From a virus (taxonomy: Duplodnaviria > Caudoviricetes), in the IMG/VR virus record IMGVR_UViG_3300014039_000024, positions 21,086 through 85,085 of that record: 64,000 nt of DNA; one strand, 5' to 3'. How positions within the stretch are numbered: the first letter of the stretch is position 1; each line of letters begins with the position of its first letter. Of this stretch, positions 10,033-43,457 are shown one piece after another. Under the pieces are notes generated by a model. It had not been told where the DNA came from. It saw only the letters and a program-made list of their open reading frames with translations, and made no database searches. The translations under genes and the position numbers were made by a program.

Positions 10033-10068
10033 AGAAATCTCCTTTCTCTCCAAGTTTTATCTTTATAT

Positions 10069-10109
10069 AAAAATAAAACGGGGATAAGAGCAATTATACT
10101 CTTATCCCC
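10069..10109 (-). terminator. Intrinsic terminator-like hairpin between the 10155-10688 gene and TMP
   Basis: GGGGATAAGAG-N8-CTCTTATCCCC, 11 bp perfect stem, followed by TTTTATTTT on minus. Confidence 0.7.
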
Positions 10110-10154
10110 ATCACTCTATTATTTTTCAAAAAATAATATTATTAACTAATTTAA

Positions 10155-10688: not shown

Positions 10689-10715
10689 AACTAGCCTCCT
10701 TTTACTCTTTATTGT

Positions 10716-10744
10716 ATTATACAAAAAATTTTTTGTTCAGTCAA
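10716..10744 (-). promoter_or_regulatory. sigmaA-type promoter inside the morphogenesis region
   Basis: TTGACT-17 nt-TATAAT on minus, upstream of ATG 10688. Confidence 0.75.
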
Positions 10745-10749
10745 TTTTC

Positions 10750-27883: not shown

Positions 27884-28220
27884 TTTGTAAATAAAATAAT
27901 ATTTTATTCCGTATTTTGAAATTGAAAATTGATTTAGATTGTATTTTGTCCAGACAAAAGAAAAAACGATGAATAAAAATTTATTTTTCCCGAAATACAC
28001 CCCCCCCCTATGCGGATTTTATTCATTCTCTGTTGGATAATAATGCAAAGGTATACCACGAGCGATCCGCGCTCGTCGAGCTGCACAAAAACAGACCCCC
28101 GCCGACAAAAACTTTTGTGCAATCCGCCACTTGTATTCCGTGGCTGAATCTGCTACCATGTAACCATGCTGAACGACGCAAGCGTCGGACAGCAAATACA
28201 TGATAAAGAGGAATTGAACC

Positions 28221-29321: not shown

Positions 29322-29681
29322 ATGAAAAACATCATCAACTATATGCTTGCTATTGCACTTCTTATCAGTGCTACTATGTTTGTATCTCACAACCAGACTA
29401 CCGAAGCGTGTGAAGAAGCGCCGCAGTCATATGACCTTTCAGTCATTGATAATTGGTGCGGCGCTGGCACTGAAAAGGGAAGCATTCGTTTCGTGGGTGC
29501 AGAAGTCGAATCCCGAAACGGGGACGTTATCACACTGCTGGACGAACAGGGCAACCTGTGGAAAGTCGAGCATATGAACATTGATGACAATGACTTCTTG
29601 TTGCTGTGGATAAATGACAATGATACATATGATGATTTTTCAGATGATGTTATCATTAAGGTATGGAGAGAAGCTTATTAA
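29322..29681 (+). CDS. Secreted/membrane-anchored hypothetical protein, 119 aa
   Basis: GAGG RBS; signal-peptide-like N-terminus. Confidence 0.7.
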   Translation: MKNIINYMLAIALLISATMFVSHNQTTEACEEAPQSYDLSVIDNWCGAGTEKGSIRFVGAEVESRNGDVITLLDEQGNLWKVEHMNIDDNDFLLLWINDNDTYDDFSDDVIIKVWREAY

Positions 29682-29714
29682 GCTTCTCTCTTCATTTTTC
29701 ATTTTGATTCATAA

Positions 29715-29907
29715 ATATTCATACATATTCATTGCATATTCATACATATTCATTTGAGCGGCGCGACGTGGGCCGCGGCGCGCCGAGTTTTGCAATAGGC
29801 AAGTTGCACAAAAATTTTTAGATGAATTTGTGCATTATGCCAGTCACCTTTATACACCCGAAAAATGAATATTTATACATGAATATTCATACAGCCCTGA
29901 TGAATAA
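29715..29907. repeat. ATATTCAT repeat cluster (4 direct copies at 10-11 bp spacing, inverted copies to the right)
   Basis: Direct copies at 29715, 29725, 29736, 29746; inverted ATGAATAT at 29865 and 29879; ATGAATAA at 29900. Confidence 0.85.
29759..29785. repeat. 27-nt GC hairpin module E1
   Basis: CGGCGCG-N13-CGCGCCG followed by AGTTT. Confidence 0.8.
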
Positions 29908-29987
29908 ATATTTTTTTCAAAAACCTATTGACATTCAGCTCAAAAGTGGTATAATAGTAGTATCAAAAGAAAAGGAGATACACCATA

Positions 29988-30284
29988 ATGACTAACACCG
30001 AATTCCTCAAGACCCTCTCGCTCGAAAAAACGCGCCTCGAACACGAACTCATCACTGCCACAGAAAAGGCCGATAACCTCGATACGGTGGAAGCGCTTGC
30101 ATGGACTGCGGTTATTACCATGGAGCACGCGCCAGAAGAAGAATACACCCGTGAACAATGCGAAGCGCTGTATGATGCCTATGAACTGGCAATACGCGCA
30201 AGCGAAGAGCAAGCCGACTACGTAGAAGAAATTGAAAATGCAATTGAAAAAATCAAATCGTTAATAGAAATGTACGAGGACTAA
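29988..30284 (+). CDS. Hypothetical acidic coiled-coil protein, 98 aa
   Basis: Own TTGACA/TATAAT promoter (29928-29955) and AAGGAG RBS. Confidence 0.75.
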   Translation: MTNTEFLKTLSLEKTRLEHELITATEKADNLDTVEALAWTAVITMEHAPEEEYTREQCEALYDAYELAIRASEEQADYVEEIENAIEKIKSLIEMYED

Positions 30285-30373
30285 ACCTCGTACATTTTTT
30301 TTATAAATGGTATTGACAAATGCCCTGTTATCTGCTACAATATAAGTACAGTAAAGAAAAGGAGATAACAACA

Positions 30374-30502
30374 ATGTATGAATTCGAATTTATCAACAAA
30401 ATCACTAACGAGCATGACATTCGGCAATCGTTATACTGTAAAGCCCCGGACCTCGGTCCGGATTGGGAGCTTGTCTTTACAGAGTATGTGGAGGAGTATT
30501 AA
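30374..30502 (+). CDS. Small hypothetical protein, 42 aa
   Basis: Promoter at 30313, AAGGAG RBS. Confidence 0.6.
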   Translation: MYEFEFINKITNEHDIRQSLYCKAPDLGPDWELVFTEYVEEY

Positions 30503-30503
30503 A

Positions 30504-30608
30504 ATGAGTGTACATGACGGTTTAGTTTTACTTTTCATTTACCTTGCTACAATCGGCGCGGGCGCGCTGATTGAATGGGCAGAAAACAAGTTGAAAAAGA
30601 GAAGTTAA
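30504..30608 (+). CDS. Small membrane peptide, 34 aa
   Basis: GGAGGAG RBS; single hydrophobic helix. Confidence 0.5.
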   Translation: MSVHDGLVLLFIYLATIGAGALIEWAENKLKKRS

Positions 30609-30713
30609 AAAACTTCTCTTTTTTTACAAAAAATACTTGACATTTTCCGCGGTTTGTGGTATTATAATTTCAGAAAGAGGAAGGATACCTCACAAACCAG
30701 AAAGGCTAATTCA

Positions 30714-30875
30714 ATGACTACTATCAAGACTCTTCTCGACGGCGTTCTCCCTGTCAAGCCCCTGTCCTATGTCCTCGGTGATGACTGGACGTATCTTTAC
30801 TCCGACACCTACAAGGGTGTGGAATTTGACGTCCACGCCTGCATGAACGGCGAGGTCGTCGCGGTGTTAAATTAA
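30714..30875 (+). CDS. Small hypothetical protein, 53 aa
   Basis: Own promoter near 30639, GAAAGG RBS. Confidence 0.6.
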   Translation: MTTIKTLLDGVLPVKPLSYVLGDDWTYLYSDTYKGVEFDVHACMNGEVVAVLN

Positions 30876-30970
30876 GGGTTGAAAAGCCCTTAATTTTTTT
30901 TACAAAAACTCTTGACAAATCCAGAAGTAAGTGCTATGCTATAGATACAATAAGAAAGGGGATAGAAACC

Positions 30971-31228
30971 ATGAAGACTTACAACATTCTCACTATCGAA
31001 CCGCCTTGCTCCGACCAGAAGCTCGCCGGTAAATTCAATGTCGCTGATAATGAAAACTTCCTCGACCGATTAGAGGAAACGCTTTACATTCTCTTTGAAT
31101 TAGAGCCGATGTTCCGCTATTGGAGACAAGACTTTCTCAAAAACCTGTCCACTTGCTTTACTTACCACTTATGCGAAAATTTCCGCGTAGAAAAGCACAG
31201 CAACGAAATTGTTATTTATGAAATTTAA
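30971..31228 (+). CDS. Hypothetical protein, 85 aa
   Basis: Own promoter, AAAGGGG RBS. Confidence 0.65.
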   Translation: MKTYNILTIEPPCSDQKLAGKFNVADNENFLDRLEETLYILFELEPMFRYWRQDFLKNLSTCFTYHLCENFRVEKHSNEIVIYEI

Positions 31229-31331
31229 GGGCGAAAACGCCCTTATTTTTTTGAAAAAATCTGAAAAAAACTATTGACAAACCCCAAATCTATGGTATAA
31301 TAAGAGTATAAAAGGAAAGGGGATAGACCAA

Positions 31332-31493
31332 ATGACTATCGAAGAACTGAGTACAAAGCTGACTGAATGGATTGACCATTATGGAATCACTGAGGAATCC
31401 ATGAACGATTTCGCAAACACATATGCGACCTCATATGAGGAATATAACGCCATCTGGGAAGAAATCTTGAATCCACTTTTGGAAAACAATTAA
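31332..31493 (+). CDS. Small acidic protein, 53 aa (MTIEELSTKL...)
   Basis: Promoter TTGACA...TATAAT near 31275, AAAGGGG RBS. Confidence 0.6.
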   Translation: MTIEELSTKLTEWIDHYGITEESMNDFANTYATSYEEYNAIWEEILNPLLENN

Positions 31494-31571
31494 AAATTTG
31501 AAATGAAAATTCAGCGGATTACATAAAAATCCGCTGAATTTTTATGCACCTTATCCCGCATATTCATTTGG

Positions 31572-31598
31572 CCGGCCGTGCGCGACTGGCGCGGCCGG
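31572..31598. repeat. 27-nt GC hairpin module E2
   Basis: CCGGCCG-N13-CGGCCGG followed by AATTT; preceded by ATATTCATTTG as in E1. Confidence 0.8.
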
Positions 31599-31738
31599 AA
31601 TTTGCTGTCAATAAGCCATTTGCACAATTTTTATGGCGAAAGTTTGTGCATTATACCAATAGACAAAATCCCGTATGTGTGCTATACTGTAATCACAGTA
31701 AGGGAAGGAAAACCCATCAAACCGGAAAGGGAAAACGC

Positions 31739-32047
31739 ATGATTAACATTCGTTCTATTCGCAAGCTCGCTGACAATGATGGCCTGACGCTTAAATATGG
31801 CAAGGTCGTTCGTTACAAGTCCGGCTGGCAAGTCGCCACCGAGGGCGTGGAGTGTGCGACCGCACGTGAAGCTATTAACGCGGTCAAAGAATATGGTGGC
31901 AACTGCGGCGTCTGGTTCGCAAATGGTATCTATTATATCGACCGTTCCAAGAGGGTCCAGACTAAAAAGGTCGCACTTGCCATTGGTCAGGCGCATAACC
32001 AAATCAGCGTATATGGCTGGGCTCGTGGCAATCTGGCTTATTGCTAA
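31739..32047 (+). CDS. Hypothetical protein, 102 aa (true start of track ORF 31544-32047)
   Basis: TAGACA-17-TATACT promoter and AAAGGG RBS before ATG 31739. Confidence 0.7.
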   Translation: MINIRSIRKLADNDGLTLKYGKVVRYKSGWQVATEGVECATAREAINAVKEYGGNCGVWFANGIYYIDRSKRVQTKKVALAIGQAHNQISVYGWARGNLAYC

Positions 32048-32129
32048 AAGAATTGCATATAGGGCTTGACAAATCGAGCCCTATATGCTACAATATGAAT
32101 ATCAAATGAAAGTGAAAGGGGACTCCAAA

Positions 32130-32399
32130 ATGGAAATTAAATATGCTCATGAGATGGCTGACAAAGCCAAAACTGCCCGCAAAAATAAGCGCGCAAAGGA
32201 CAACGCGGTCGCCCGCGTATATATCGAAGAACATCTGATGAAAGATATCGAAGCGGCCGCGGACAAAGGCGAAAATACACTCTACCGTTGCCTCGTTGCC
32301 ATCGAGGATGAGGCAGTTAAAGAAGCTGTCAAGGGTGTTATGCGCAACTACGGCTATGATGCCACATATACGAACGGGATTCTTTCTCTGTCGTGGTAA
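32130..32399 (+). CDS. Hypothetical protein, 89 aa
   Basis: Own promoter, AAAGGGG RBS. Confidence 0.7.
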   Translation: MEIKYAHEMADKAKTARKNKRAKDNAVARVYIEEHLMKDIEAAADKGENTLYRCLVAIEDEAVKEAVKGVMRNYGYDATYTNGILSLSW

Positions 32400-32502
32400 A
32401 TAAAGAGGGGAAAATTTTCCCCTCTTTTTTCAAAAATACCTCTTGACAAATATATGCAAGCATGATATAATACAAGTATAATAAAGGAAAGGGGAAACTA
32501 CA

Positions 32503-32859
32503 ATGAATAGAGATATTTATAACATCCTAAAGAAAACTATGGCGTCCGGTATTCTTTCACCTATGGATTTGAATACTGCGGAACGCGCTTGCGAAAAGTA
32601 TGAAAGAAATTTAGAGGACGCCCGCAAAGAACGCGAGTATCAGTCACAGCGAATGGTTAAGCTCGTCTATGAACTGCTCAATGACGCGGGTAAGCCCATC
32701 ACACCGACTGAAATGCAGTTTATGGCGTTTAAGAAGTATGGCTATGAGTACGCCAATGGCAAATTCACTTGGTACTGTATGCAGTTATTCTTCGACCGTG
32801 AACTCAAACGCGAACCCCGAGGGAATAAAGTTTATTATTCTATTCGAGAAAAAGAATAA
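32503..32859 (+). CDS. Putative winged-helix DNA-binding protein, 118 aa
   Basis: C-terminal LVYELLNDAGKPITPTEM...GNKVYYSI resembles the wHTH of 39316 and 41623. Confidence 0.5.
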   Translation: MNRDIYNILKKTMASGILSPMDLNTAERACEKYERNLEDARKEREYQSQRMVKLVYELLNDAGKPITPTEMQFMAFKKYGYEYANGKFTWYCMQLFFDRELKREPRGNKVYYSIREKE

Positions 32860-32936
32860 AAAAATAAGAAAAGGGGCTTGACAAAAGCCCCTTTCTTTGC
32901 TATACTTAATGTATCAAAGGAGAGGGGAATAAAAAA

Positions 32937-33008
32937 ATGGAATGTCCTTATTGCGATGAAAAGTGCGGAACTCATGCTCAATGTATAAAGTGCGGAAAGG
33001 GAAATTGA
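32937..33008 (+). CDS. 23-aa Cys-rich mini peptide (CPYC..C...CIKC)
   Basis: Own promoter and GGAGAGGGG RBS. Confidence 0.4.
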   Translation: MECPYCDEKCGTHAQCIKCGKGN

Positions 33009-33009
33009 A

Positions 33010-33354
33010 ATGAATACAGAATTTCTAATTGTAGGTGGAATCTTTAGCGCAGTTATCAGTTTATTTGTGATGCTTATTTGTTGGTGCAACATGGATAAGC
33101 ACCGTCCAGTAGTAAGAATCCTAACTGGTATTCTTATTTCATGTGCTATTGGTTATGCGCTTGTTGGGTCTGTTTTTTTGGAGCGCAGTGCCGATGAAAA
33201 AGCATGGAATAATGGTTATTGCTCTATCTGTGGAAATGAGATGAAATTTGTGAATGCTTCTCATGGCAGACATGGGACAGTTTATTATTATTGGTATTGT
33301 GATAAATGCGGGCACACATTAGAATTAACGTCTAATTTCAGAAAGGAAAATTAA
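33010..33354 (+). CDS. Membrane protein with C-terminal Zn ribbon, 114 aa
   Basis: Two TM helices; CSIC...CDKC. Confidence 0.7.
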   Translation: MNTEFLIVGGIFSAVISLFVMLICWCNMDKHRPVVRILTGILISCAIGYALVGSVFLERSADEKAWNNGYCSICGNEMKFVNASHGRHGTVYYYWYCDKCGHTLELTSNFRKEN

Positions 33355-33355
33355 C

Positions 33356-33562
33356 ATGAACGAAAAGAGTATTCCTCAGACCTTGAAAGAACAAGCAGAG
33401 GCCATCGAAAAGCTGGCACAGAGAATTTCAAAAGAAAGTCAGGCACTGCCAGACATGGAAGACCGCATTAGTGGAATGGAAATAGCGGATGCCCTGTTTT
33501 CATTTCAGTCAAAAATGCGATATGAATTCAAATGGATTGCGGAATCCATGTGGGATGAATAA
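33356..33562 (+). CDS. Hypothetical protein, 68 aa
   Basis: AAGGA RBS; followed by a terminator. Confidence 0.65.
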   Translation: MNEKSIPQTLKEQAEAIEKLAQRISKESQALPDMEDRISGMEIADALFSFQSKMRYEFKWIAESMWDE

Positions 33563-33564
33563 TT

Positions 33565-33601
33565 ATTCGGGTGAGATAACCAAATCTCACCCGAATTTTT
33601 T
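33565..33601 (+). terminator. Intrinsic terminator with AACCAA loop
   Basis: ATTCGGGTGAGAT-AACCAA-ATCTCACCCGAAT plus T tract. Confidence 0.8.
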
Positions 33602-33615
33602 GTTTCATTTGACTA

Positions 33616-33711
33616 TTGACAAAACCATCTGGAAGGTGTATAATTCAGCCGGCCGCCAACGTACGCTGCGGCCGGAAATTCCAGTATATCACAGCTCCAG
33701 CAATTTGTCAA
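33616..33711. promoter_or_regulatory. Module E3: convergent sigmaA promoters flanking a 27-nt hairpin
   Basis: Plus: TTGACA 33616, 17 nt, TATAAT 33639. Hairpin CCGGCCGC-N11-GCGGCCGG at 33649-33675. Minus: TTGACA 33711, 17 nt, TATACT 33688. Confidence 0.85.
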
Positions 33712-33833
33712 GCAAAAAATTGAAAAAAGTTACACAAATTATTTTTCCCAAATTTGTGCATTTTACCAGTAGACAAAACGCTATGAGCGTGTTATACTAT
33801 AATTGTTCCAAGGGGAACGGAAAGGTAAGGTAA

Positions 33834-34046
33834 ATGAAAATGACCAACTACGATATCCATGCTTTCGTCAAGACCCAGCTTCTTTATGCCGAGCAGATGC
33901 CCAGTGATGCCGAGCTCTTCAAACACAACGCATATGGCGCTGTCCAGTGGGAACTGTACCGCACCAACGACAAGGCACTTGAAAACAAGTGGAATGACGT
34001 ATATGCGCCCAAGTTTGATAAAATTATCAAAAATTATTGGGCATAA
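33834..34046 (+). CDS. Hypothetical protein, 70 aa
   Basis: TAGACA-17-TATACT promoter, AAGG RBS. Confidence 0.7.
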   Translation: MKMTNYDIHAFVKTQLLYAEQMPSDAELFKHNAYGAVQWELYRTNDKALENKWNDVYAPKFDKIIKNYWA

Positions 34047-34117
34047 GGGGTTGACAAAACCCCTTTCCCCATGGTATAATATCATCAATCCAAGAGAGAA
34101 AGAAAGAGGTAAATCAA

Positions 34118-34459
34118 ATGCTTATCAAAATGTCCAAACACGCCACGCAAGACCGCATCGACCGCTTGTTCTTCATCTATGATAATATCGGCATTGGTGA
34201 AGAGTATATCAACAGCGTAGAGGATGACGTGCTTTATACTATTACAACGACTGGCGTTCTGCTTGTGCGCAGTCCAAAAGATGGAACACTGATTACCGCC
34301 TATATCGCGGACATTGACAAAATCACCGCGATTTGGAGAAACAAGCACGGTGAGCGTCCTATGCCTGACAATCTTTACAAGCGCGTCCTCGCAAATGCGT
34401 TCTTTGACAGAATGTGGAACAAAATTGAAAAGGATGGTAAGAAAAATGTTGTTCGGTAA
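34118..34459 (+). CDS. Hypothetical protein, 113 aa
   Basis: Own promoter, GAGG RBS. Confidence 0.7.
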   Translation: MLIKMSKHATQDRIDRLFFIYDNIGIGEEYINSVEDDVLYTITTTGVLLVRSPKDGTLITAYIADIDKITAIWRNKHGERPMPDNLYKRVLANAFFDRMWNKIEKDGKKNVVR

Positions 34460-34805
34460 AAAAGAAAAGAAATTCAATCCCTACGAGAACCACGCGGACG
34501 AACTTCTTTATGAGCTTTGGGACGTGGAACGCCACCTTGAAGAGTGTGTTGAAAAGTCAATTGCGCGGATAGGCGTTGTGTCTTTATATCCAGATGGGCC
34601 TGACCGCAGAAAAGCACTATCTGATGCCGATGAAGCTAAACATTCCTTGCTTGTTGCTATTGGAGCATTTGATACATCCCGCATGGTTTACAATGATTAT
34701 GTAAACAAGCATCAAGAAAACTTTGATAATCCGCGGAAGCCGTGGAAACACACAAGTCATGAAACCATTGAGCGGGTTTATAAGAATTTTTATAAGAGAG
34801 GTTAA
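34446..34805 (+). CDS. Hypothetical protein, 119 aa
   Basis: ATG 34446 in the frame of track ORF 34314-34805; overlaps the previous stop. Confidence 0.65.
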   Translation: MLFGKKEKKFNPYENHADELLYELWDVERHLEECVEKSIARIGVVSLYPDGPDRRKALSDADEAKHSLLVAIGAFDTSRMVYNDYVNKHQENFDNPRKPWKHTSHETIERVYKNFYKRG

Positions 34806-34810
34806 GTAAA

Positions 34811-35050
34811 ATGAAAATTACTGTTAAGAATAATAATAAACTTGTTCCGTTTGAAGATATCCCTATCGGTATGGTTTTCAAAGACCCTGTAAGTCGTGAT
34901 ATGTATTATATTAAGGCCGAATCGGTTCTTGATGAAAACACCGATGAAGAAGAACTAAACTCTTTCTGTGTTAGCAATAACACTTTTAACTGTTTCGGTC
35001 CTCAGTATATGGTTCAGCCCACCTACGGCGCAGAATTGATTATTCCCTGA
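34811..35050 (+). CDS. Hypothetical protein, 79 aa (similar in style to 38507-38761)
   Basis: GAGG RBS; KITVKNN..VPFEDIPIGMVF pattern. Confidence 0.65.
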   Translation: MKITVKNNNKLVPFEDIPIGMVFKDPVSRDMYYIKAESVLDENTDEEELNSFCVSNNTFNCFGPQYMVQPTYGAELIIP

Positions 35051-35160
35051 TAAAACCGAACATTTGTTCGCGTTTATTTCTCCCCCTTTCCAATGGCTTT
35101 GGCAGTTGAGCCTATCAACTGCCACCCTTTCCAAAAATTATTTTTAAGGAGAATAGAAAA

Positions 35161-35340
35161 ATGGAAAATAAGGAAATGCTTAGCGAAGTGGTTGAAAAGG
35201 TCTGTGCGATGGCTCGTTATGGTATTCAGAAGCGTTTCGCTCCCGATGAAGCAGGGGCAAAGGAAATGATTGAGCGTGTTTCGCTCATTGAGGATAAGCT
35301 CGTTCCTATTCTCATCGACCTTGAAGCTGTAGAAAGTTGA
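35161..35340 (+). CDS. Hypothetical protein, 59 aa
   Basis: AAGGAG RBS, TGA stop, terminator follows. Confidence 0.6.
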   Translation: MENKEMLSEVVEKVCAMARYGIQKRFAPDEAGAKEMIERVSLIEDKLVPILIDLEAVES

Positions 35341-35387
35341 ATGAAAAATCACCCAATTTGGGTGATTTTTTTTGTTTAATTTCACTA

Positions 35388-35457
35388 TTGACAAAGTTCC
35401 TTAAATGTGATAAAATCGCCGCGCGCGAACGGCTGTGGCGCGCCGAGTTTTTGTCAA
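35388..35457. promoter_or_regulatory. Module E4: forward promoter plus 27-nt hairpin (one mismatch), orphan reverse -35
   Basis: TTGACA 35388, 17 nt, TAAAAT 35411; hairpin 35419-35445 then AGTTT; TGTCAA at 35452 without a matching -10. Confidence 0.75.
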
Positions 35458-35564
35458 GATGTAAGTTCAACAAATTTTTGTACGATTTTTTGGTTATTCT
35501 GCCAATAGACAAAATTCCCAAAATCTGGTAATATAGTATCATAAAAGGAAAGGGAGAAATCAAA

Positions 35565-36002
35565 ATGAAAAAGTACAGTGTTTATAAGTATAATAACCGC
35601 ACATTCCGCGTTTATGTGTCAGAGTGTGGATATGGCTTGGTTGATGTGGTCGTGCGCGAGGTCGTACACCCTGAGCGCAAGTTTTTCAAAACGAGATATT
35701 TCTATCAGAATATCTACTGCACCGAAGATTTTGAAGAAATCAGCGATATTGAGCGGTCTGCCATAGCATGTGGTTTTGCTTTGGAAGAACAGCATCAGGC
35801 TTATGAAGCTAAAATGGAAAAGGTGGTGTCAAGAATGATGTATGAAGAAGTTAATACCTATATACTCGAAGATTGGCTGAGCGCATGGGTAGAAACGTTC
35901 AATGATTGCGCGTGTTGTCCCTTGTCCGACCAGTGCGACCGCGAGGGCGGGATTGATAGTATAGTATGTGCAGATAGATTATTAGAGAAATTAAAAGAGT
36001 AA
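35565..36002 (+). CDS. Hypothetical protein with C-terminal Cys cluster, 145 aa
   Basis: TAGACA promoter, AAAGGGAG RBS. Confidence 0.7.
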   Translation: MKKYSVYKYNNRTFRVYVSECGYGLVDVVVREVVHPERKFFKTRYFYQNIYCTEDFEEISDIERSAIACGFALEEQHQAYEAKMEKVVSRMMYEEVNTYILEDWLSAWVETFNDCACCPLSDQCDREGGIDSIVCADRLLEKLKE

Positions 36003-36075
36003 ATTAAAAATTTCTTATTGACAATAATATTATAATATGATATTATTACAATAGAAAAAGGAAAGGGTGATATCT

Positions 36076-36549
36076 ATGAATACAATTCTTTTATTCGCGG
36101 GATGCACCGCAGTTAATGTGATTCTATCAACCATTAAAAGCATCGTAACTGTCAAGGGCGGAAAGTTTATTGCATCTCTGATGAACGCTTTGACTTATGG
36201 ATTTTATTCCTATGTCATTATTTTAACTTCCGCAGATGGTATGAGCGTTTGGGCAAAAATGGGCATTACTGCCGTCTGTAATTTCGTGGGCGTTTACCTT
36301 GTCAAGTGGATTGAGGAAAAAGCCCGCAAGGATAGGCTGTGGGAGATTCGAGCGACCATTCCCGCAAACAATACACAGGAAGTTCATTCTGCATTGAAGG
36401 ACGTTCCACACAATTATATTCTTAATGTGGGCAAGTATACTGTATTTAATATTTACTGTGCCACACAAAAAGAAAGTGCTATGGTCAAGCCGGTCTTAAA
36501 TCAATATGGGGCAAAGTATTTTGTTTCCGAAAGTAAAAATCTTGATTAA
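36076..36549 (+). CDS. DUF5698/DUF2179-like (UPF0316) membrane protein, 157 aa
   Basis: Three TM helices (NVILSTIKSI...YGFYSYVII...NFVGVYL) plus a small C-terminal alpha/beta domain. Confidence 0.6.
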   Translation: MNTILLFAGCTAVNVILSTIKSIVTVKGGKFIASLMNALTYGFYSYVIILTSADGMSVWAKMGITAVCNFVGVYLVKWIEEKARKDRLWEIRATIPANNTQEVHSALKDVPHNYILNVGKYTVFNIYCATQKESAMVKPVLNQYGAKYFVSESKNLD

Positions 36550-36563
36550 GGGGAGAAATTAAA

Positions 36564-37016
36564 ATGAAAGCTACTGGTATTATTCGCAGAATTGATGACC
36601 TTGGACGTGTAGTTATTCCGAAAGAAATTCGACGCACTCTTAAAATTCGCGAGGGAGACCCACTTGAAATTTTCTTGGGAGAGCAGAATACAATCTGTTT
36701 CAAGAAGTATTGTGTCCTCGGTAAGATGGATGATGAAGTCCTGCGAGTAGCGGTTGAGATGGCAAGAAAGTCAAATCTTGCACCTATTGCAATTTATGAC
36801 CGCGGAGAAAAGTTGAAAGGAATGGAGAACTTCCCATCTTACGTCCCCGACGAATGGAGAAATTATTCTGAACCTTTTCTTTATAATGCCACTTATGGTG
36901 TTTACCCCATCATTACGAACGGTGATTTTGAGGGCTATGTTGTTTGTGACCACAGTAGTATTAGCGTTGAAATGGGAATGATTGCTCGCTATCTGAGTGT
37001 TGCAATTGAGGAATAA
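36564..37016 (+). CDS. spoVT: SpoVT/AbrB-family transcription regulator, 150 aa
   Basis: N-terminus MKATGIIRRIDDLGRVVIPKEIRRTLKIREGDPLEIF is nearly the SpoVT consensus; shortened C-terminal domain. Confidence 0.8.
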   Translation: MKATGIIRRIDDLGRVVIPKEIRRTLKIREGDPLEIFLGEQNTICFKKYCVLGKMDDEVLRVAVEMARKSNLAPIAIYDRGEKLKGMENFPSYVPDEWRNYSEPFLYNATYGVYPIITNGDFEGYVVCDHSSISVEMGMIARYLSVAIEE

Positions 37017-37018
37017 CT

Positions 37019-37204
37019 ATGAGAGTTGAAAAGAAATATCAGGTTGACTATAACGGGACGAACCCTTGGGGTCAAAGTTATGATAATCGAATGCTTTTTG
37101 ATTCCGAGGAAGAAGCAGATGTTTTTATCGAAAAGCTGAAACAGGATGAAAATATCTATCAGGCATTCAAAACTGTTACAACCTGTTTCTATCACTTACA
37201 TTAA
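37019..37204 (+). CDS. Hypothetical protein, 61 aa
   Basis: GAGG RBS; terminator follows. Confidence 0.6.
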   Translation: MRVEKKYQVDYNGTNPWGQSYDNRMLFDSEEEADVFIEKLKQDENIYQAFKTVTTCFYHLH

Positions 37205-37209
37205 AAATA

Positions 37210-37243
37210 TTTTGAGACGAGATAACCAAATCTCGTCTCAAAA
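37210..37243 (+). terminator. Terminator-like hairpin with AACCAA loop
   Basis: TTTTGAGACGAGAT-AACCAA-ATCTCGTCTCAAAA. Confidence 0.75.
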
Positions 37244-37261
37244 TTTTATCTATTTTACCTA

Positions 37262-37355
37262 TTGACAAATAGGCTCAGGTATGATAAAATGGCCGGCCGT
37301 TTGCGTCTGCCACGGCCGGAATTTCAATTATACCACCATCCCAACAATTTGTCAA
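37262..37355. promoter_or_regulatory. Module E5: convergent promoters flanking a 27-nt hairpin
   Basis: Plus: TTGACA 37262, 17 nt, TAAAAT 37285. Hairpin CCGGCCGT-N11-ACGGCCGG at 37293-37319. Minus: TTGACA 37355, 17 nt, TATAAT 37332. Confidence 0.85.
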
Positions 37356-37474
37356 TAGACAATTTGAATAAAAATCTCGCACTTAAATTTCCCGATTTTG
37401 TGCATTTTGCCAATAGACAAATCAATACTGACCTGTTATACTATAGATACAGTAAAGGAAAGGGGAACAACAAA

Positions 37475-37972
37475 ATGAAAATTATTTACATCAAGTCTCA
37501 CGTGCGGATTCGCCGGTCTATCAATTTGGATATGGACGGCACTATTGCTGACCTTTACGGCGTTAAGGACTGGCTTCCGCTTCTCCGTTCGGAAAATCCT
37601 AGGCCTTACCGAATGGCAATCCCTATGTGCGACATGACCGCGTTGAATGAAGTGTGCGAACTTCTCCGTGCGGACGGCTGGGAAATCAATATCATTACTT
37701 GGCTTTCTAAGGATTCGAGCGAGGAATACAAAGATGCCGTTCGTAAAGCAAAGCGCGCTTGGTTGAAAGAGCAGGGTTTCCACTACGACCATTTTCACGG
37801 CATTCAGTATGGCGCGACCAAAGCCGACAGTGTGCGCGACCGTTATGATTTTTCTATCCTTGTTGATGATAACAAAAAAGTCCGTGATGGTTGGCACATT
37901 GGTTCAACTATTGACCCAACCGCTGAAAATTTGGTTGAAGCGCTGAAAGAAATTTTGGAGAAAGGGGCTTGA
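37475..37972 (+). CDS. HAD-family 5'(3')-deoxyribonucleotidase (NT5C-like), 165 aa
   Basis: DMDGTIADL HAD motif I, IITW motif II, LVDD motif IV. Confidence 0.75.
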   Translation: MKIIYIKSHVRIRRSINLDMDGTIADLYGVKDWLPLLRSENPRPYRMAIPMCDMTALNEVCELLRADGWEINIITWLSKDSSEEYKDAVRKAKRAWLKEQGFHYDHFHGIQYGATKADSVRDRYDFSILVDDNKKVRDGWHIGSTIDPTAENLVEALKEILEKGA

Positions 37973-38024
37973 CAAGCCCCGCTCCATGTGTTATAATCAA
38001 TGTATCAAATGAAAGGGTGATAAA

Positions 38025-38168
38025 ATGATGCCTTACTTTTGGCTTACTCTTGGTGTTCTCGCAAAAGTGACTGGACAGACTGAGGGCGGTAACTATTACT
38101 ATGAAACCGTTGTCTCCAAAGAAATTGGACTCGTAACCGCAGAATGGGTTCATAGCCATTTGATGTGA
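38025..38168 (+). CDS. Small hypothetical protein, 47 aa
   Basis: Own promoter, AAAGGGTG RBS. Confidence 0.5.
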   Translation: MMPYFWLTLGVLAKVTGQTEGGNYYYETVVSKEIGLVTAEWVHSHLM

Positions 38169-38177
38169 GGTAAAAAA

Positions 38178-38492
38178 ATGTTGTACTTAATGATGGATGA
38201 TTTAGCCAACAGTCATTTGGTAAAAGTTGGTTATTCCGATGGCACTAAAAATCTCGCAAAGCGTCGCAAAAGCTATTATAGCCATAATCCAAAAGCAATA
38301 ATGCGTAGTACCTGTGCGGGCAGTCGAGACATGGAAAATACTTGTCATCAGACTTTAAGTGAGTTAGGTATCCGCATTAGTGGTACAGAATGGTTTGAAG
38401 TGCCAGCGGATTTGTTTGATTCTCTTTACTATAAAGGAATGGCATTTTTTAGACCAAATCATAAGCCGATTCATTTCTTAGAAGAATTTTGA
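38178..38492 (+). CDS. GIY-YIG-like nuclease (T5orf172/Mug113 type), 104 aa
   Basis: LYLM...VKVGYS...R...ME...H.....GTEWF pattern. Confidence 0.65.
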   Translation: MLYLMMDDLANSHLVKVGYSDGTKNLAKRRKSYYSHNPKAIMRSTCAGSRDMENTCHQTLSELGIRISGTEWFEVPADLFDSLYYKGMAFFRPNHKPIHFLEEF

Positions 38493-38506
38493 AAAGGGGA
38501 AAAATT

Positions 38507-38761
38507 ATGAAAGTAAATTTTGGCGACAAAGGCAAGCTCCAAATTATGAATATTTTGTGCGGTGGCACGTTCACCACGCAAAGGAGCGAGGGCGGAACGG
38601 GAATGTATCTCAAAGTTGATGGCAACAACAAAGCTCCGTTTATTAAATCAAGGGGTTGGCAATTTTGTTATGCAGTCAATCTTGAAACGGGTCAGATTCG
38701 AGAATTTTCTCGTGAACAGTTGGTTACCCCTGTTAAAACCGAAGTCAATGTAATTGACTAA
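38507..38761 (+). CDS. Hypothetical protein, 84 aa
   Basis: AAGGGG RBS; terminator follows. Confidence 0.65.
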   Translation: MKVNFGDKGKLQIMNILCGGTFTTQRSEGGTGMYLKVDGNNKAPFIKSRGWQFCYAVNLETGQIREFSREQLVTPVKTEVNVID

Positions 38762-38816
38762 TTTCAAAATGAAAATCTCCCCAAAAATGGGGAGATTTTT
38801 TTGTTTATTTTGACTA

Positions 38817-38912
38817 TTGACACCGACCGGGGAATGTGATAAAATTGGCCGGTCGCCCACGCACGTTGCGACCGGAATTTACCATTATACACCCTGCCAG
38901 CATTTTTGTCAA
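38817..38912. promoter_or_regulatory. Module E6: convergent promoters flanking a 27-nt hairpin
   Basis: Plus: TTGACA 38817, 17 nt, TAAAAT 38840. Hairpin CCGGTCGC-N11-GCGACCGG at 38849-38875. Minus: TTGACA 38912, 17 nt, TATAAT 38889. Confidence 0.85.
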
Positions 38913-39004
38913 GAGAAATTTTGCACAAATTTGATTATTTTCAGATCCCGAAACTTGTGCAATTTGTCAATAGACAAATCAATACTGACCTGCTATAATA
39001 CATA

Positions 39005-39110
39005 ATGTCAGGAGGAAAGAGTAAGACCTGCGGAAAGGCGGTTCACCTGACCATTGTACCAGAAGTCGGTGCGAAAGTCTCAAGCGTGGCGTGCCGAACA
39101 AACTTTCAAA
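39005..39110 (+). ncRNA. Candidate structured small RNA
   Basis: TAGACA-17-TATAAT promoter (38971-38999); no RBS-supported ORF; stem TCGGTGC/GTGCCGA with G-U pairs and a GCGAAAGT motif. Confidence 0.4.
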
Positions 39111-39315
39111 AAAGTTTGAAAAACCCCTTGACAAATCGCTCATCCTATGGTACAATGAATACATCAAATGAGAGAGGTATAAACAAGATGACTATTGAAG
39201 CTCGTCCACCGCCTAAAAAAATTCGCAAAAACCTATTGACAAACCCGCAAATCTATGATACAATAACTACATCAAAGACAAGGACAGTCTAAAATACCAG
39301 AAAGGAATTGATACT

Positions 39316-39690
39316 ATGTCTACTTCTACTGTTAAGAAGCTCACCAAGCGCGACCGTTTCGAGGCTCTTCTCAAGATGACCGAGGTTCAGGCAAACCCTG
39401 ATATGGTTGAGTTCATCAACCATGAGATTGAGCTTCTCGCCAAGAAGAACGCGGGCGATAAGAAGCCCACAGCCAAGCAGATGGAGAATGACGCGGTGAA
39501 GCAGGTCATTCTGGACGCCATGACCGAGAACGCGGGTAAGCTGTTCACTGTGACTGACCTGATTAAGAGCGTCCCCGAACTGGGGGATTACTCCAATCAG
39601 CGTGTTTCCGCTCTTCTGCGCCAGATGATTGAAGCGGGTGCTGTCGTTAAGACGGTCGATAAGCGCAAGTCTTATTTCTCCCTTGCGTAA
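39316..39690 (+). CDS. Winged-helix DNA-binding protein, paralogue A, 124 aa
   Basis: Own promoter; C-terminal FTVTDLI...SNQRVSALLRQMIEAGAVVKTVDKRKSYFSL; high-expression codons. Confidence 0.7.
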   Translation: MSTSTVKKLTKRDRFEALLKMTEVQANPDMVEFINHEIELLAKKNAGDKKPTAKQMENDAVKQVILDAMTENAGKLFTVTDLIKSVPELGDYSNQRVSALLRQMIEAGAVVKTVDKRKSYFSLA

Positions 39691-39833
39691 AGGGCAAGGG
39701 ACAGGGGATAAAAAAATCCCCTGTCCCGCATAAAAAAGTCTTGACAAATCCAAAAGTAAGCGTTATAATACTTATAGAGGTTGAGAGAACGATGGTAAAC
39801 CTCAATCGAATTTTATGAATGGAGACATACAAC

Positions 39834-40610
39834 ATGAGCATTGATAAGCGCAGAAACTACGGTATCATGTTAGATACTGAAACCGCGAACACTATCCAGC
39901 AGGGCGATAAACTGGATATGTCGAACGTCTTGCCGTATGATTTTGGATGGGCGGTCATTGATTCCAAGGGCAACGTCTATGAAACTTATTCCTTTGTGAA
40001 TCGCGACATTTTCTGCTATGAGCGCGACCTGATGCAGTCCGCCTATTACGCCGACAAGATTCCCCGCTATATCGAGGACATTGCGAACGGCACCCGAATC
40101 ATGGCAGACCTATTTGAAATTCGACAGGCTTTCTGCGACTGCGTGGAACGCTATAATTGTTCTTTTGTGTGTGCTCACAACATGAGATTTGACCTTAATG
40201 CTTGCAACAATGCTCAGCGTTGGGACACGAAAAGCAAGTATCGCTATTTCTTCCCTTACGGGCTTGAAGTGTGGGACACTCTGAAAATGGCGCGACAGAT
40301 TATCGGCAAGATGCCTACTTACCGCGATTATTGCGAACAAAACGGCTACAAGACTAAAAATGGACAGCTCCGCTTTACCGCAGAAATCCTTTACCGCTTT
40401 ATTAGTGGTGAAGAAGAATTTGATGAATCGCATACGGGACTTGAAGATGTTCTGATTGAAGTTGAGATTTTGAAGTATTGTGTTCGTCAGCACAAGGCAA
40501 TGGAAAAGTCTCTTTTCAAGAAACCAGAAACGGAACGCCCGCGCCCTACGGACTTCCAGCGGGAACTCATGCGAAACATTAAGGAAAATCCAATGGTAAA
40601 CATGAGATAA
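39834..40610 (+). CDS. DEDDh 3'-5' exonuclease (DnaQ superfamily), 258 aa
   Basis: LDTET (ExoI), HNMRFD (ExoII), HTGLED (ExoIII). Confidence 0.8.
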   Translation: MSIDKRRNYGIMLDTETANTIQQGDKLDMSNVLPYDFGWAVIDSKGNVYETYSFVNRDIFCYERDLMQSAYYADKIPRYIEDIANGTRIMADLFEIRQAFCDCVERYNCSFVCAHNMRFDLNACNNAQRWDTKSKYRYFFPYGLEVWDTLKMARQIIGKMPTYRDYCEQNGYKTKNGQLRFTAEILYRFISGEEEFDESHTGLEDVLIEVEILKYCVRQHKAMEKSLFKKPETERPRPTDFQRELMRNIKENPMVNMR

Positions 40611-40688
40611 AAAAAATAGGGAACAGGGCTTGACAAGTCCTGTTCCCTGTGATATAATAAGTACATCCAAAAGAAAGAGGTGTTTCCT

Positions 40689-40967
40689 ATGAACGCAAAA
40701 CAAGTCCTTTTTGTAGACCCTAATGAGAATGACCCGCACATGGGTATTCTGATTGACCATGATTACATCATCTGCGCGGAATGCGGTGGCGTTTTTGAAG
40801 CTGATGAAGTGCTCATCATTAAGACTTATGACTTTTGGGTCAACTTTGAAAATGAAATCGCGGACGAGCTTGACCTACTGACTGCTCAAACCATTGCAAA
40901 AGAATTGAATATCGCGGGCAAGTCAGGGCGCGATATTTGGGCAGAAAAAATTAAAGAAGAATTCTGA
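40689..40967 (+). CDS. Hypothetical protein, 92 aa
   Basis: Own promoter, GAGGTG RBS. Confidence 0.65.
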   Translation: MNAKQVLFVDPNENDPHMGILIDHDYIICAECGGVFEADEVLIIKTYDFWVNFENEIADELDLLTAQTIAKELNIAGKSGRDIWAEKIKEEF

Positions 40968-41010
40968 CAAAAGGGAGAGAAATCTCCCTTTTTTTTGTTT
41001 ATTTTGCCTA

Positions 41011-41106
41011 TTGACAAATGCGGATTTCTATGTTAAAATGGGCGGCCCGCGAACGCCCAACGCGGGCCGAATTCACCATTATACCACGCCCCGCCAATTT
41101 TGTCAA
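41011..41106. promoter_or_regulatory. Module E7: convergent promoters flanking a 27-nt hairpin
   Basis: Plus: TTGACA 41011, 17 nt, TAAAAT 41034. Hairpin CGGCCCGCG-N9-CGCGGGCCG at 41043-41069. Minus: TTGACA 41106, 17 nt, TATAAT 41083. Confidence 0.85.
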
Positions 41107-41329
41107 GAGAAAAGTTACATAAAAATGAAAAAAGTTTTTTCCCGTAATTTGGTTATTTTGTCAATTGCAATTCGTGGGCAATCTGTTATAATAGATAATG
41201 TCAAGAGGGAATGACACTGAGGTAAACCACGGCAAGCCTATGTGGGACGGGTTCAAATCCCTTTAAGGACGCTTAAAAAAAGTGAAATTCCCTCTTGACA
41301 AAACCCCGCAAGCGTGCTACAATAGATAA

Positions 41330-41520
41330 TGTCAAGAGGAAGTAGCCCAAGAAATCCGAGGGCGCGCGACTTCGAGAAAGTATAGGAAGTAAACGTAATA
41401 CACCACGTAGTAAAGCCAAACGTTGAACGCGAAAGTGAGTTTGACTTGTCAGTTTGCGGATATGTCCGCAACGTTAAATAAGCAAACAAGACCTTATCCG
41501 TCAGGTCGGGGTTGTAAATC
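41330..41520 (+). ncRNA. Candidate ~190-nt multi-stem ncRNA
   Basis: TTGACA-17-TACAAT promoter (41295-41323), no ORF; hairpins ACTT/AAGT, AAC-GC-GAAA-GT-GTT, GCGGA-TATG-TCCGC and GACCT/AGGTC; long-range AACGTT/AACGTT. Confidence 0.5.
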
Positions 41521-41622
41521 GTGTAAAAAGTTTGCAAAACCTCTTGACAAACTTCTCAAAGTGTGGTACACTTAATACATCAAAAGGGTAGCGACCTACC
41601 GCCAAAGAAAGGAATTGATACT

Positions 41623-42000
41623 ATGTCTACTTCTACTGTTAAGAAGCTCACCAAGCGCGACCGTTTCGAGATGCTCCTGACCATGGATGAGGTCAAAGCT
41701 GACGCCGGCATGGTTGAGTTCATCAACCATGAGATTGACCTGCTCGCTCGCAAGAACGCGTCTGATAAAAAGCCGACCGCGAATCAGGTGGCGAATGACG
41801 GCTACAAGGATATTATCTTTGCTGAGCTGTCCGCGAATCCCGACCGCCTGTACACTGTGACCGAGCTTATCAAGGGCGTTGATGGTCTGGGCGACCTGTC
41901 CAATCAGCGCGTTTCCGCTCTGCTCCGTCAGATGGTGGAAGCCAACGGCGTTGAAAAGGTCGTTGAAAAGCGCAAGTCTTATTTCCGTCTTGCCCACTAA
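41623..42000 (+). CDS. Winged-helix DNA-binding protein, paralogue B, 125 aa
   Basis: RBS and first ~16 codons identical to 39316; same wHTH C-terminus. Confidence 0.7.
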   Translation: MSTSTVKKLTKRDRFEMLLTMDEVKADAGMVEFINHEIDLLARKNASDKKPTANQVANDGYKDIIFAELSANPDRLYTVTELIKGVDGLGDLSNQRVSALLRQMVEANGVEKVVEKRKSYFRLAH

Positions 42001-42100
42001 GAACGTGGGAGTGCCCGAAAAAAATCGGGCACTCCCGCAAATTTCCCCTTGACAACTGCCTTGTGTAGTGCTATAATCATACTTGAAAGGGGGCTATGAA

Positions 42101-42508
42101 ATGCCTAAAATGAGCGAGAAAGACTTTCAGGCAAAGATTGACAATCTAATGAAAAAGTTAGATTGCACTGCCGAGGAAGCAAAAGAAATTCTGATGGACG
42201 ATGATGATATTGACCATGGAATCGCCAAGGACTTTGATTTGTCTGCTGACAAGCTGAAAGAAGCTAACAAGTATTCCAAGACTGGAACGCGCAAAGCGCC
42301 GACCGCTTACAAGTTTGAAAAGCGACAGCGTAAAGAGAACCCCACAAAACGCTCTATTATCGCTGAACTTGCAACTTTTTTGCGGGAAAACAGTGAAAAT
42401 GCGTGCGAAAACGTAGAAATTACGAACGTAGAACGTATGATTGCGTTCAATGTGGGCGAAAATGCCTATGAATTGACGTTAATCCAGAAGCGAAAGCCCA
42501 AAAATTGA
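42101..42508 (+). CDS. Hypothetical protein, 135 aa
   Basis: Own promoter, AAAGGGGG RBS. Confidence 0.7.
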   Translation: MPKMSEKDFQAKIDNLMKKLDCTAEEAKEILMDDDDIDHGIAKDFDLSADKLKEANKYSKTGTRKAPTAYKFEKRQRKENPTKRSIIAELATFLRENSENACENVEITNVERMIAFNVGENAYELTLIQKRKPKN

Positions 42509-42620
42509 TGAAAAATGGTGGAAAACCGCTGAAAAAATGCGGTTTTCCACCAGAAAAAGGCCAAAAATGTTAAAAAATGGTTGAAGAAACGATGGTACAC
42601 TTCAATCAATAGAAAGGAAA

Positions 42621-43037
42621 ATGTTCATGGAAGAAATTGTGATTAAGATGCGTCACTTTAAGAACGGCAGACCGCCTGTTGCTATGGAGTTTATGCCCGA
42701 CTGTGGAGAGAACCTAAAGGGCGTTCAAGCCGTCTACTTTTTCAAGTTTTACAATGATGATGAACTTGAATTTAACAAAGTAGGCACTTCTGGGAAAGAT
42801 GTTGTAGGCCGTTTGCGTGATGAAATCGGCGAGTATGCGAAAAAGTATTCTATTACTCGCGTTGAGATTCACCGCATCCGCTCTTGCGGGGACTACCCCG
42901 CCGAGGGTGCGGAATCCGCTCTTCGTGCGGAACTGATTAGGCGCTATCCCAAGGCGTTCCGAAAGAATGACCGCTTTTTCAACGTGGACATTGACCCCTC
43001 TGTTTTCGATGAAATTGTAAACAATTTCTTTGAATAA
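42621..43037 (+). CDS. GIY-YIG-like nuclease domain protein, 138 aa
   Basis: VYFF...NKVGTS...GRL...AESALR pattern. Confidence 0.55.
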   Translation: MFMEEIVIKMRHFKNGRPPVAMEFMPDCGENLKGVQAVYFFKFYNDDELEFNKVGTSGKDVVGRLRDEIGEYAKKYSITRVEIHRIRSCGDYPAEGAESALRAELIRRYPKAFRKNDRFFNVDIDPSVFDEIVNNFFE

Positions 43038-43120
43038 ATATTCAAATCAGCAGGTTGAACAAAACCTGCTGATTTTTTTTGTGCGTTCTAACGAAAGTGA
43101 AAATTTGTGCATTTTACCTA

Positions 43121-43184
43121 TTGACTTTTCCGATCGGATGTGCTATAATGGCCGGCCCGGGGTGGGACGTCCCGGGCCGAGTTT
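43121..43184 (+). promoter_or_regulatory. Module E8: forward promoter plus 27-nt hairpin
   Basis: TTGACT 43121, 17 nt, TATAAT 43144; CGGCCCGGG-N9-CCCGGGCCG at 43153-43179 then AGTTT. Confidence 0.8.
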
Positions 43185-43457
43185 CCGATCGGTATACCCA
43201 TATGCAAATTTTTTTGAACTTCTAGCACCCCTCCATATGGCCCAGGAAAATCCCGAAAGTTGATTTTTATAAAAAAATATGTTATAATATTAAAAAAGAC
43301 TTTTTTAAACCCGCGTAGGATCATATGCCTTTATGATTAATTGAAAATTGCTTCGCCCTTACATCTTTTCACACCTTTATTTTCATCTAAAAAAATCTTG
43401 ACAAATTTAAAAAAATATTATATAATATATTTACAAAATAAGAAAAGAGGTATTCAT

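Follow-up and report, generated by a model that had tools for sequence, protein, structure and literature searches.

Repeated 27-nt GC hairpins of fixed geometry in the early region of a group of uncultured gut and rumen phages

The window analysed here comprises 64,000 nucleotides (nt), bases 21086-85085, of the viral contig IMGVR_UViG_3300014039_000024 (Caudoviricetes), an 85-kilobase (kb) IMG/VR record estimated to be ~44% complete; positions below are those of the window. The structural proteins are distant kin of those of phAss-1, of large Enterococcus siphoviruses and of Tsamsa-like Bacillus phages, and complete genomes of relatives measure 194-198 kb. Between 28 and 44 kb lies a plus-strand block of small genes, mostly without Pfam families, with a GC content of 40-46% as compared to 28-36% in both flanks. 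Its plus strand bears about 28 sigmaA-type promoters close to the consensus (matching at 11-12 of 12 positions), roughly one per 500 base pairs (bp), and the block is clearly the early region. Set into this block are eight GC-rich hairpins of 27 nt, here called E1 to E8, which form the subject of this study.

The hairpins and their family

All eight hairpins named in the original prediction, an earlier reading of the bare sequence, were recovered at the coordinates it gave, including the flanks that follow them (AATTT, AAATT or AGTTT) and the single mismatch, a C.C, in E4:

29759-29785, plus strand: hairpin E1, 27 nt; no adjacent consensus promoter, ATTCATA-type repeats on both sides
31572-31598, plus strand: hairpin E2, 27 nt; no adjacent consensus promoter, preceded by the terminator at 31510-31538
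33649-33675, plus strand: hairpin E3, 27 nt; abutted by a forward and a reverse promoter
35419-35445, plus strand: hairpin E4, 27 nt, one C.C mismatch; forward promoter only
37293-37319, plus strand: hairpin E5, 27 nt; abutted by a forward and a reverse promoter
38849-38875, plus strand: hairpin E6, 27 nt; abutted by a forward and a reverse promoter
41043-41069, plus strand: hairpin E7, 27 nt; abutted by a forward and a reverse promoter
43153-43179, plus strand: hairpin E8, 27 nt; a forward but no reverse promoter, with a distinct conserved stretch of ~70 nt behind it

The distances of 1.6-2.2 kb between them also hold, but what had been described as regular spacing merely reflects operon lengths. 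The whole 85-kb contig was scanned for GC-rich 7-bp stems with loops of at most 15 nt, which returned seven of the eight, each with a span of exactly 27 nt, and at 42011 a further hairpin of the ordinary, terminator-like type; E4 (35419) was not among them because of its mismatch. The eight are the sole examples of their kind in the contig. A covariance model built from 89 family members identified exactly these eight sites in the window, all on the plus strand, with E-values from 1e-13 to 3e-9, the opposite strand giving ~0.5 at best. A control with the reversed pattern had 0 matches in six genomes. Predicted RNA folding energies range from -12 to -22 kcal/mol.

Fixed length and maintained pairing, from which selection on structure had been proposed, hold in relatives according to both alignments and the covariance model. 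The first alignment consisted of 89 distinct sequences chosen partly on pairing. Standard pairs occupy 92.9% of its cells over nine pairs; two-sided changes number 155, as compared to 64.7 +/- 5.4 in shuffles, none of the 500 shuffles reaching 155; and pairing falls to 29-45% when partners are slid by 1-3 columns. Since this set had been selected partly on pairing, a second one was rebuilt from context (flank, downstream box and AT-rich surroundings) with a relaxed stem requirement. Its 181 distinct 27-mers show all eight Watson-Crick pairs in 124 cases and seven of eight in 47, amounting to 95% Watson-Crick paired stem cells. Stems are strictly G/C, with positions 1, 3, 6 and 7 essentially invariant and positions 2, 4 and 5 swapping C-G for G-C in seven of the eight possible combinations.

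The loops had been considered unrelated, which is wrong: they share an asymmetric motif consisting of A11 (60%), C12 (80%), G13 (80%), C16 (73%) and G17 (77%). Loop length is 9-11 nt, the non-palindromic centre has 66% GC against 36% for the genome, and a separate clade (locus L008) displays a CCTGG-type loop in place of the usual motif. The flanks are polar: T-x-G-G precedes the hairpin and AATTT follows it.

Several additional properties were considered and rejected. Extra pairing within the loop is not supported, as no covariation was found there and C12 and G17 are simply conserved. Wobble pairs in the first set (17 vs 4) hinted at a bias towards action on the plus strand, an idea that was dropped with the larger, context-ascertained set, where the counts are 20 vs 10 with shared ancestry. 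A longer conserved RNA was likewise discarded: RNAalifold recovers the hairpin alone and no conserved structure beyond it. Rfam 15 gave no match at the hairpins on either strand, even at E-values up to 1. Finally, decoys for restriction enzymes were dismissed, GC-rich 4-mer palindromes being common outside the hairpins.

Promoters, terminators and a 70-nt ruler

The promoter layout that had been reported was confirmed: forward consensus promoters with a -10 that ends 2-4 nt before E3-E8, a second, reverse consensus promoter with its -10 7-8 nt after E3, E5, E6 and E7, and upstream terminators accompanied by a T-rich upstream element. These four reverse promoters are the only consensus minus-strand promoters between 27 and 46 kb, and about 28 other near-consensus plus-strand promoters in the same 14 kb have no hairpin. 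The parts of a module are given for E3, followed by their equivalents in the other modules:

33565-33596, plus strand: T1, canonical terminator upstream of E3; equivalents at 29665-29691, 31510-31538, 35343-35371, 37209-37244, 38771-38800, 40969-40992 and 43044-43075
33616-33644, plus strand: P1, forward consensus promoter (12/12 match), -10 ending 4 nt before the hairpin; equivalents from the promoter scan at 35388-35416, 37262-37290, 38817-38845, 41011-41039 and 43121-43149
33683-33711, minus strand: Prev, reverse promoter, -10 7 nt after the hairpin; equivalents from the promoter scan at 37327-37355, 38884-38912 and 41078-41106
33746-33753, plus strand: TCCCGAAA-like box, starting 71 nt after the hairpin with 70 nt between; same offset for E1 (29856), E2 (31669), E4 (35516), E5 (37390), E6 (38946) and E7 (41140), one nt further for E8 (43251)
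33770-33798, plus strand: P2, second forward promoter, heading the operon after E3; equivalents at 29928-29955, 31660-31688, 35506-35534, 37414-37442, 38971-38999, 41165-41192 and 43260-43288
33553-33678, minus strand: predicted reverse RNA of ~115 nt, comprising a 5' hairpin, an antisense copy of P1 and the upstream terminator read backwards; putative equivalents at 37197-37322, 38757-38878 and 40955-41072

Across 291 distinct contexts of the family, 40% have no adjacent promoter, 24% have both, 19% only the forward and 16% only the reverse one. A forward promoter, where present, is always 2-5 nt from the hairpin; the reverse promoter keeps its spacing of 7-8 nt in 108 of 119 cases; and the -10 of P2 ends at one of three discrete offsets from the hairpin, ~+90, +110 or +124. 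Stem integrity is 7.72 of 8 pairs without an adjacent promoter and 7.81 of 8 with both. The original prediction had offered paired sense/antisense small RNAs and RNA polymerase collision or decoy traps as functions. Given intact stems in the promoter-less 40%, the presence of both promoters in no more than 24% and the same stem integrity in all classes, neither is supported as the general function, and the core function does not depend on the hairpin marking the start of an RNA. From the promoter and terminator positions, the four reverse promoters in the window very probably make hairpin-capped RNAs of ~105-120 nt, with the upstream terminator, read backwards, as their 3' end; this would be an accessory use of the element.

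A role as fail-safe intrinsic terminator was rejected on tail scores. The stem would suffice but the U-tract does not: hairpin tails score 0.4-1.5 (family mean 1.3), as compared to 2.3-4.8 for true terminators of the region and 0.8 +/- 0.8 for random positions. On both strands the tails, which start with AA or AG, score like random sequence. In 82% of the copies a canonical terminator already lies upstream.

A 70-nt ruler downstream of the hairpin was overlooked in the earlier reading. In 113 of 136 contexts not selected for it, a TCCCGAAA-like box starts 70 +/- 1 nt after the hairpin, and the remaining contexts mostly have box variants at the same position. Further boxes are constant in position: CAATTTTT lies at +26 to +33 and GAAA..TTTGYRCA spans +39 to +51. 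The ruler is kept whether the interval contains a reverse promoter, as in some copies, or unrelated sequence, as in others, and since RNAalifold finds no structure beyond the hairpin, an RNA fold does not account for the ruler. The TTTGYRCA box resembles the upstream element that the phage's promoters share, serving the reverse promoter in one orientation and P2 in the other. The TTGCACAA / TTGTGCAA inverted repeat was considered as an RNA helix and rejected because its changes are not compensated; it fits better as an upstream element shared by the phage's promoters in either orientation. The TCCCGAAA box with its flanks (e.g. 38940-38956, ~AATTTTC-CC-GAAATT) resembles the CodY-box consensus of Firmicutes at ~12 of 15 positions, which may be coincidence.

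Certain modules have peculiarities of their own. E1 is flanked at 29695-29757 and 29865-29900 by ATTCATACATATTCAT-type repeats, imperfect TGAATATTCA palindromes that resemble operator repeats, recur before E2 and are kept in relatives L057, L058 and L071. The stretch of ~70 nt after E8 (43180-43260) contains CCGATCGG and CCATATG repeats and is kept in at least ten related contigs. E8 counterparts in some relatives have their forward promoter 15-17 nt upstream, so that the RNA would contain the entire hairpin, and the E8-type unit may be a separate small RNA. The long leader behind E7 includes a T-arm-like hairpin, GGG-TTCAAAT-CCC, at 41240-41262, where neither ARAGORN nor Rfam called a tRNA. 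At the left border of the early block (27960-28140) a TTCCCGAAA box is accompanied by a short GC hairpin, CGAGCG..CGCTCG, and by a promoter upstream element of the TTTGTGCAA type; the border has no 27-nt hairpin and may be a degenerate first module. A second hairpin-promoter arrangement, distinct from the 27-nt element, is found at five simple early promoters (32066, 32878, 34051, 37969 and 40630), in which a short GC hairpin bears the -35 hexamer at its tip (type ggggc-TTGACA-agcccc).

Distribution, exchange and neighbouring genes

An exact-pattern scan of viral contigs resulted in 66 loci, mostly in contigs of 100-197 kb, in which a span of 27 nt dominates the GC hairpins (128 of ~235). Many human-gut and rumen assemblies are among the matches listed by a metagenome scan. 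In genome collections the element and its context occur in contigs binned with metagenome-assembled genomes of Acutalibacteraceae, Lachnospiraceae and other Clostridia or Eubacteriales, and in three further bins labelled Treponema or Mollicutes; the bins suggest that hosts belong to the class Clostridia. The covariance model identified 10, 10, 9, 11 and 4 copies in five relatives, located in their early regions, 1-3 kb apart and in a single orientation. Within each of six genomes the copies are confined to the early region and have the same orientation. Phages in GenBank gave no DNA match to the region or to a single module. The nearest named relative, phAss-1, lacks such a hairpin, and the paper describing it mentions neither hairpins nor promoters. 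The element is real, widespread and well defined.

In at least 4-5 cases near-identical hairpins that share their right flank have left flanks unrelated to each other, the reverse never being seen. As read from these alignments, the hairpin is inherited with its right flank and left flanks are exchanged. Module order is collinear in genomes G000, G001 and G003, and most indel borders between close relatives are ordinary promoter/terminator junctions rather than hairpins. Indels in relatives are flanked by duplicated promoter segments. Compared with window positions 37434-37466, relative L071 (G001) has an 821-bp insertion at ~9981-10802 with a ~33-nt duplicated piece of P2 and 5' leader at its flanks; a second insertion in a relative, of ~220 bp, has a duplicated promoter at its flanks (window 34045-34120). 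Both have the appearance of indels at promoter repeats resembling those of the promoter-early stem-loop (PeSL) cassettes discussed below.

Tyrosine and serine recombinases (PF00589, PF00239) were absent from G000 and four complete relatives in searches whose positive controls worked, and so was the Y1 (HUH) transposase (PF01797), which makes a dedicated recombination system unlikely. The proposal that the hairpins delimit recombination cassettes is maintained in part: a dedicated recombinase is not supported, none having been found in the four complete relatives, and passive PeSL-like exchange at module edges is visible in the left-flank swaps and the indels. A sigma-70 family gene is present in one relative only. 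The search for a T7-type polymerase found nothing, and neither did its control.

Some genes of the window deserve mention. An early gene at 36564-37016 encodes an AbrB/MazE-type DNA-binding domain (Pfam E-value 9e-10) and is a candidate regulator of early promoters. The small gene at 38178-38492 is T5orf172 / GIY-YIG-like (Pfam E-value 8e-7), is missing in the otherwise collinear relative G001 and is probably a mobile nuclease gene. Late and structural genes (1-26821, minus strand) are interrupted by TAG alone, and reading TAG as sense yields full-length genes throughout this late arm; the tape-measure frame at 1789-10053 on the minus strand, for instance, spans 2754 amino acids with 66 TAG codons. 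The early block requires no TAG recoding.

Possible function and comparison with known systems

As the best of several readings we infer, tentatively and with less confidence than the description above commands, that the element belongs to a control module of fixed geometry which acts on DNA, is bound by a factor and gates the abutting promoters at early-operon boundaries. A docking platform at the DNA level is indicated by the ruler and the GC-rich centre, by stem positions that do not vary, by conservation irrespective of promoters and by -10 elements that abut the site. Strict promoter spacing, tails unlike those of terminators, inheritance with the right flank and confinement to the early region in one orientation also speak for it. 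The 27-nt hairpin would be the left-edge anchor of a module of ~105-110 bp found ahead of every major early operon; the phages concerned form an uncultured clade from gut and rumen with hosts of Clostridia type. A factor, probably phage-encoded since the loop motif differs between clades, would dock on the GC palindrome, including the TGG and AATTT beside it, and would contact the boxes kept at constant distance, CAATTTTT (+26 to +33) and TCCCGAAA (+71). Because the forward (2-4 nt upstream) and reverse (7-8 nt downstream) -10 elements abut the docking site, both start points would lie inside it or at its edge, and occupancy would hence silence both promoters and block passage, making the module a gate or insulator at every early-operon boundary. 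With the site free, host sigmaA polymerase would fire from both sides; the forward RNA would start inside the 5' arm, and the reverse RNA would begin with the whole hairpin and run ~105-120 nt to the upstream terminator. Should a factor indeed bind, the clade-specific loop variants would represent natural, mutually independent operator/regulator pairs on consensus sigmaA promoters.

Four points weigh against such a gate. Arm complementarity is ~95% across seven stem types, which a dimer that reads duplex half-sites does not require; it speaks for pairing within one strand, be it of RNA, of single-stranded DNA or in a cruciform, or else for palindromes homogenised by mutation. Extruding a cruciform around an 11-nt centre is costly in energy. 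A Pfam search of 30 neighbouring proteins gave no obvious binding partner for the module. Lastly, the forward spacing of 2-4 nt is equally expected if transcripts must exclude the full hairpin.

The latter belongs to an explanation at the RNA level, which in our estimate is nearly as likely as the gate, though likewise rather doubtful. The hairpin would act as a boundary mark in gene-strand RNA that reads through the upstream terminator, either because a factor binds or cuts it or because it stops 5'-to-3' decay from entering the next operon; forward promoters would start inside the 5' arm, letting their own RNA escape, and reverse promoters would use the palindrome as a 5' cap. This would account for pairing maintained with many two-sided changes, for a polarity that equals gene direction in all genomes, for inheritance with the downstream unit and for the high predicted stability of the hairpins, as well as for a forward -10 that is always 2-5 nt away, so that the start point falls inside the stem. 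It leaves unexplained the 70-nt ruler and its fixed boxes, there being no further conserved RNA structure, and a GC-rich loop is superfluous for an RNA stem. Tails are not terminator-like, and G.U vs A.C pairs (20 vs 10, counts that are not independent) show no clear strand bias. Moreover, promoter-less hairpins behind a strong terminator would rarely be transcribed, yet they are equally conserved.

Three further explanations seem unlikely. One is a transcription valve that senses structure, in which the GC palindrome would be driven into an intrastrand-paired form at the start points of two face-to-face host promoters, either by negative supercoiling from ~30 strong co-directional early promoters or by a clade-specific protein on the 70-bp ruler, and would thereby switch entire early operons on or off. 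Such a valve would be nature's equivalent of promoters engineered to be controlled by a cruciform, and would represent a new class of regulatory DNA in phages.

Antisense control, with short hairpin-capped RNAs that fence off or silence early transcription and copies without a reverse promoter as derivatives, is improbable too. Reverse promoters are perfect, occur only beside hairpins and, with a -10 at 7-8 nt, place their start point at the hairpin foot; the predicted RNAs end at the upstream terminator read backwards, and contexts with a terminator, hairpin and reverse promoter are frequent in related phages. Nevertheless, a reverse promoter exists in only 41% of the 291 contexts, stems are equally intact without it, and loop and flank polarity as well as the downstream ruler persist where it is absent.

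There is, in our estimate, also little chance that the hairpin is a single-stranded DNA target of a structure-specific nicking, priming or recombining enzyme, or a hot spot of PeSL-like exchange. The combination of stem, conserved loop and one-sided conserved flank resembles signals of HUH nucleases and relaxases, a resemblance only, and exchange is suggested by the swapped left flanks and by the duplicated promoter segments at indels. Opposed to this are the lack of tyrosine/serine recombinases and Y1 transposases in four complete relatives, the indel borders located mostly away from hairpins and the collinear module order in three genomes. Very improbable are traps or decoys in which face-to-face promoter pairs sequester host RNA polymerase: start points ~25 bp apart would, going by polymerase footprints, prevent joint occupancy and the initial transcribed region is GC-rich, but few family contexts have both promoters, and polymerase is titrated anyway by the ~28 other strong promoters.

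Large uncultured gut phages that recode TAG are known from sequence only, and the module provides a concrete handle on their early-gene control: it is sharply defined, easily cloned and recurs in hundreds of metagenomic contigs from human gut and rumen. Should it act through its structure, it would offer one of the rare examples in nature of a promoter controlled by folding of DNA or RNA where transcription starts.

The architecture was not recognised as described when the window was first read. This requires qualification, since its frame of terminator plus promoter is known from PeSL cassettes; the separate, paired 27-nt hairpin at start points, the reverse promoter and the 70-nt ruler have no match in the descriptions found.

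Convergent promoters form antisense RNA switches in temperate phages, namely ant/sar of P22 and pR/pL of coliphage 186; these occur once per genome in the immunity region, their start points are separated by 60-70 bp and they have no palindrome in common. They share with our modules face-to-face promoters, overlapping transcripts and a short antisense RNA, but here a genome has 8-11 copies, the distance between start points is ~25 bp and one or both promoters are missing in most family members. The stabiliser hairpins known from messenger RNAs of Firmicutes and phages (ermC, aprE, SP82) place a stable stem a few nt from the 5' end, as the predicted reverse RNAs do; they have no conserved loop or ruler, and in our case forward RNAs are predicted to start inside the stem, while 40% of the copies do not lie at a 5' end at all. 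Hairpin promoters of phage N4, with 5-7 bp stems and 3-nt loops, are read by its virion RNA polymerase and likewise constitute a GC-rich DNA hairpin in a phage early region as a structure-specific signal. Here, in contrast, loops are 9-11 nt, host-type promoters flank the hairpin, and no phage polymerase was detected, in a search whose control also failed to match. The bacterial extragenic palindromes REP and BIME are GC-rich, intergenic, ~30 nt in length and conserved in structure, as is the element; REPs are located at gene 3' ends and spread by Y1 transposases, whereas the element is restricted to the phage early region, has fixed neighbours and comes without such a transposase. Integron attC and res-type sites depend on a cognate tyrosine or serine recombinase, and neither enzyme was found in G000 or the four complete relatives.

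The closest known arrangement is that of the PeSL cassettes of T4-type phages, which combine a terminator formed by a stem-loop with an AT-rich stretch and a strong promoter of host type, are repeated between genes in an early region rich in family-less genes, and have insertions and deletions at their borders (PMC2839356, PMC4122927). The PeSL stem-loop is itself the terminator, whereas here the true terminator is separate and upstream and the GC hairpin does not score as one. PeSLs lack a fixed 27-nt stem with maintained pairing, a reverse promoter and a 70-nt ruler, and belong to another phage type and host. The left-flank swaps at the hairpin edge and the duplicated promoter pieces at indels may correspond to PeSL gene shuffling, although gene order is collinear in three genomes. 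What both systems have in common is a terminator with a consensus promoter, here at every module, among early genes that mostly belong to no Pfam family.

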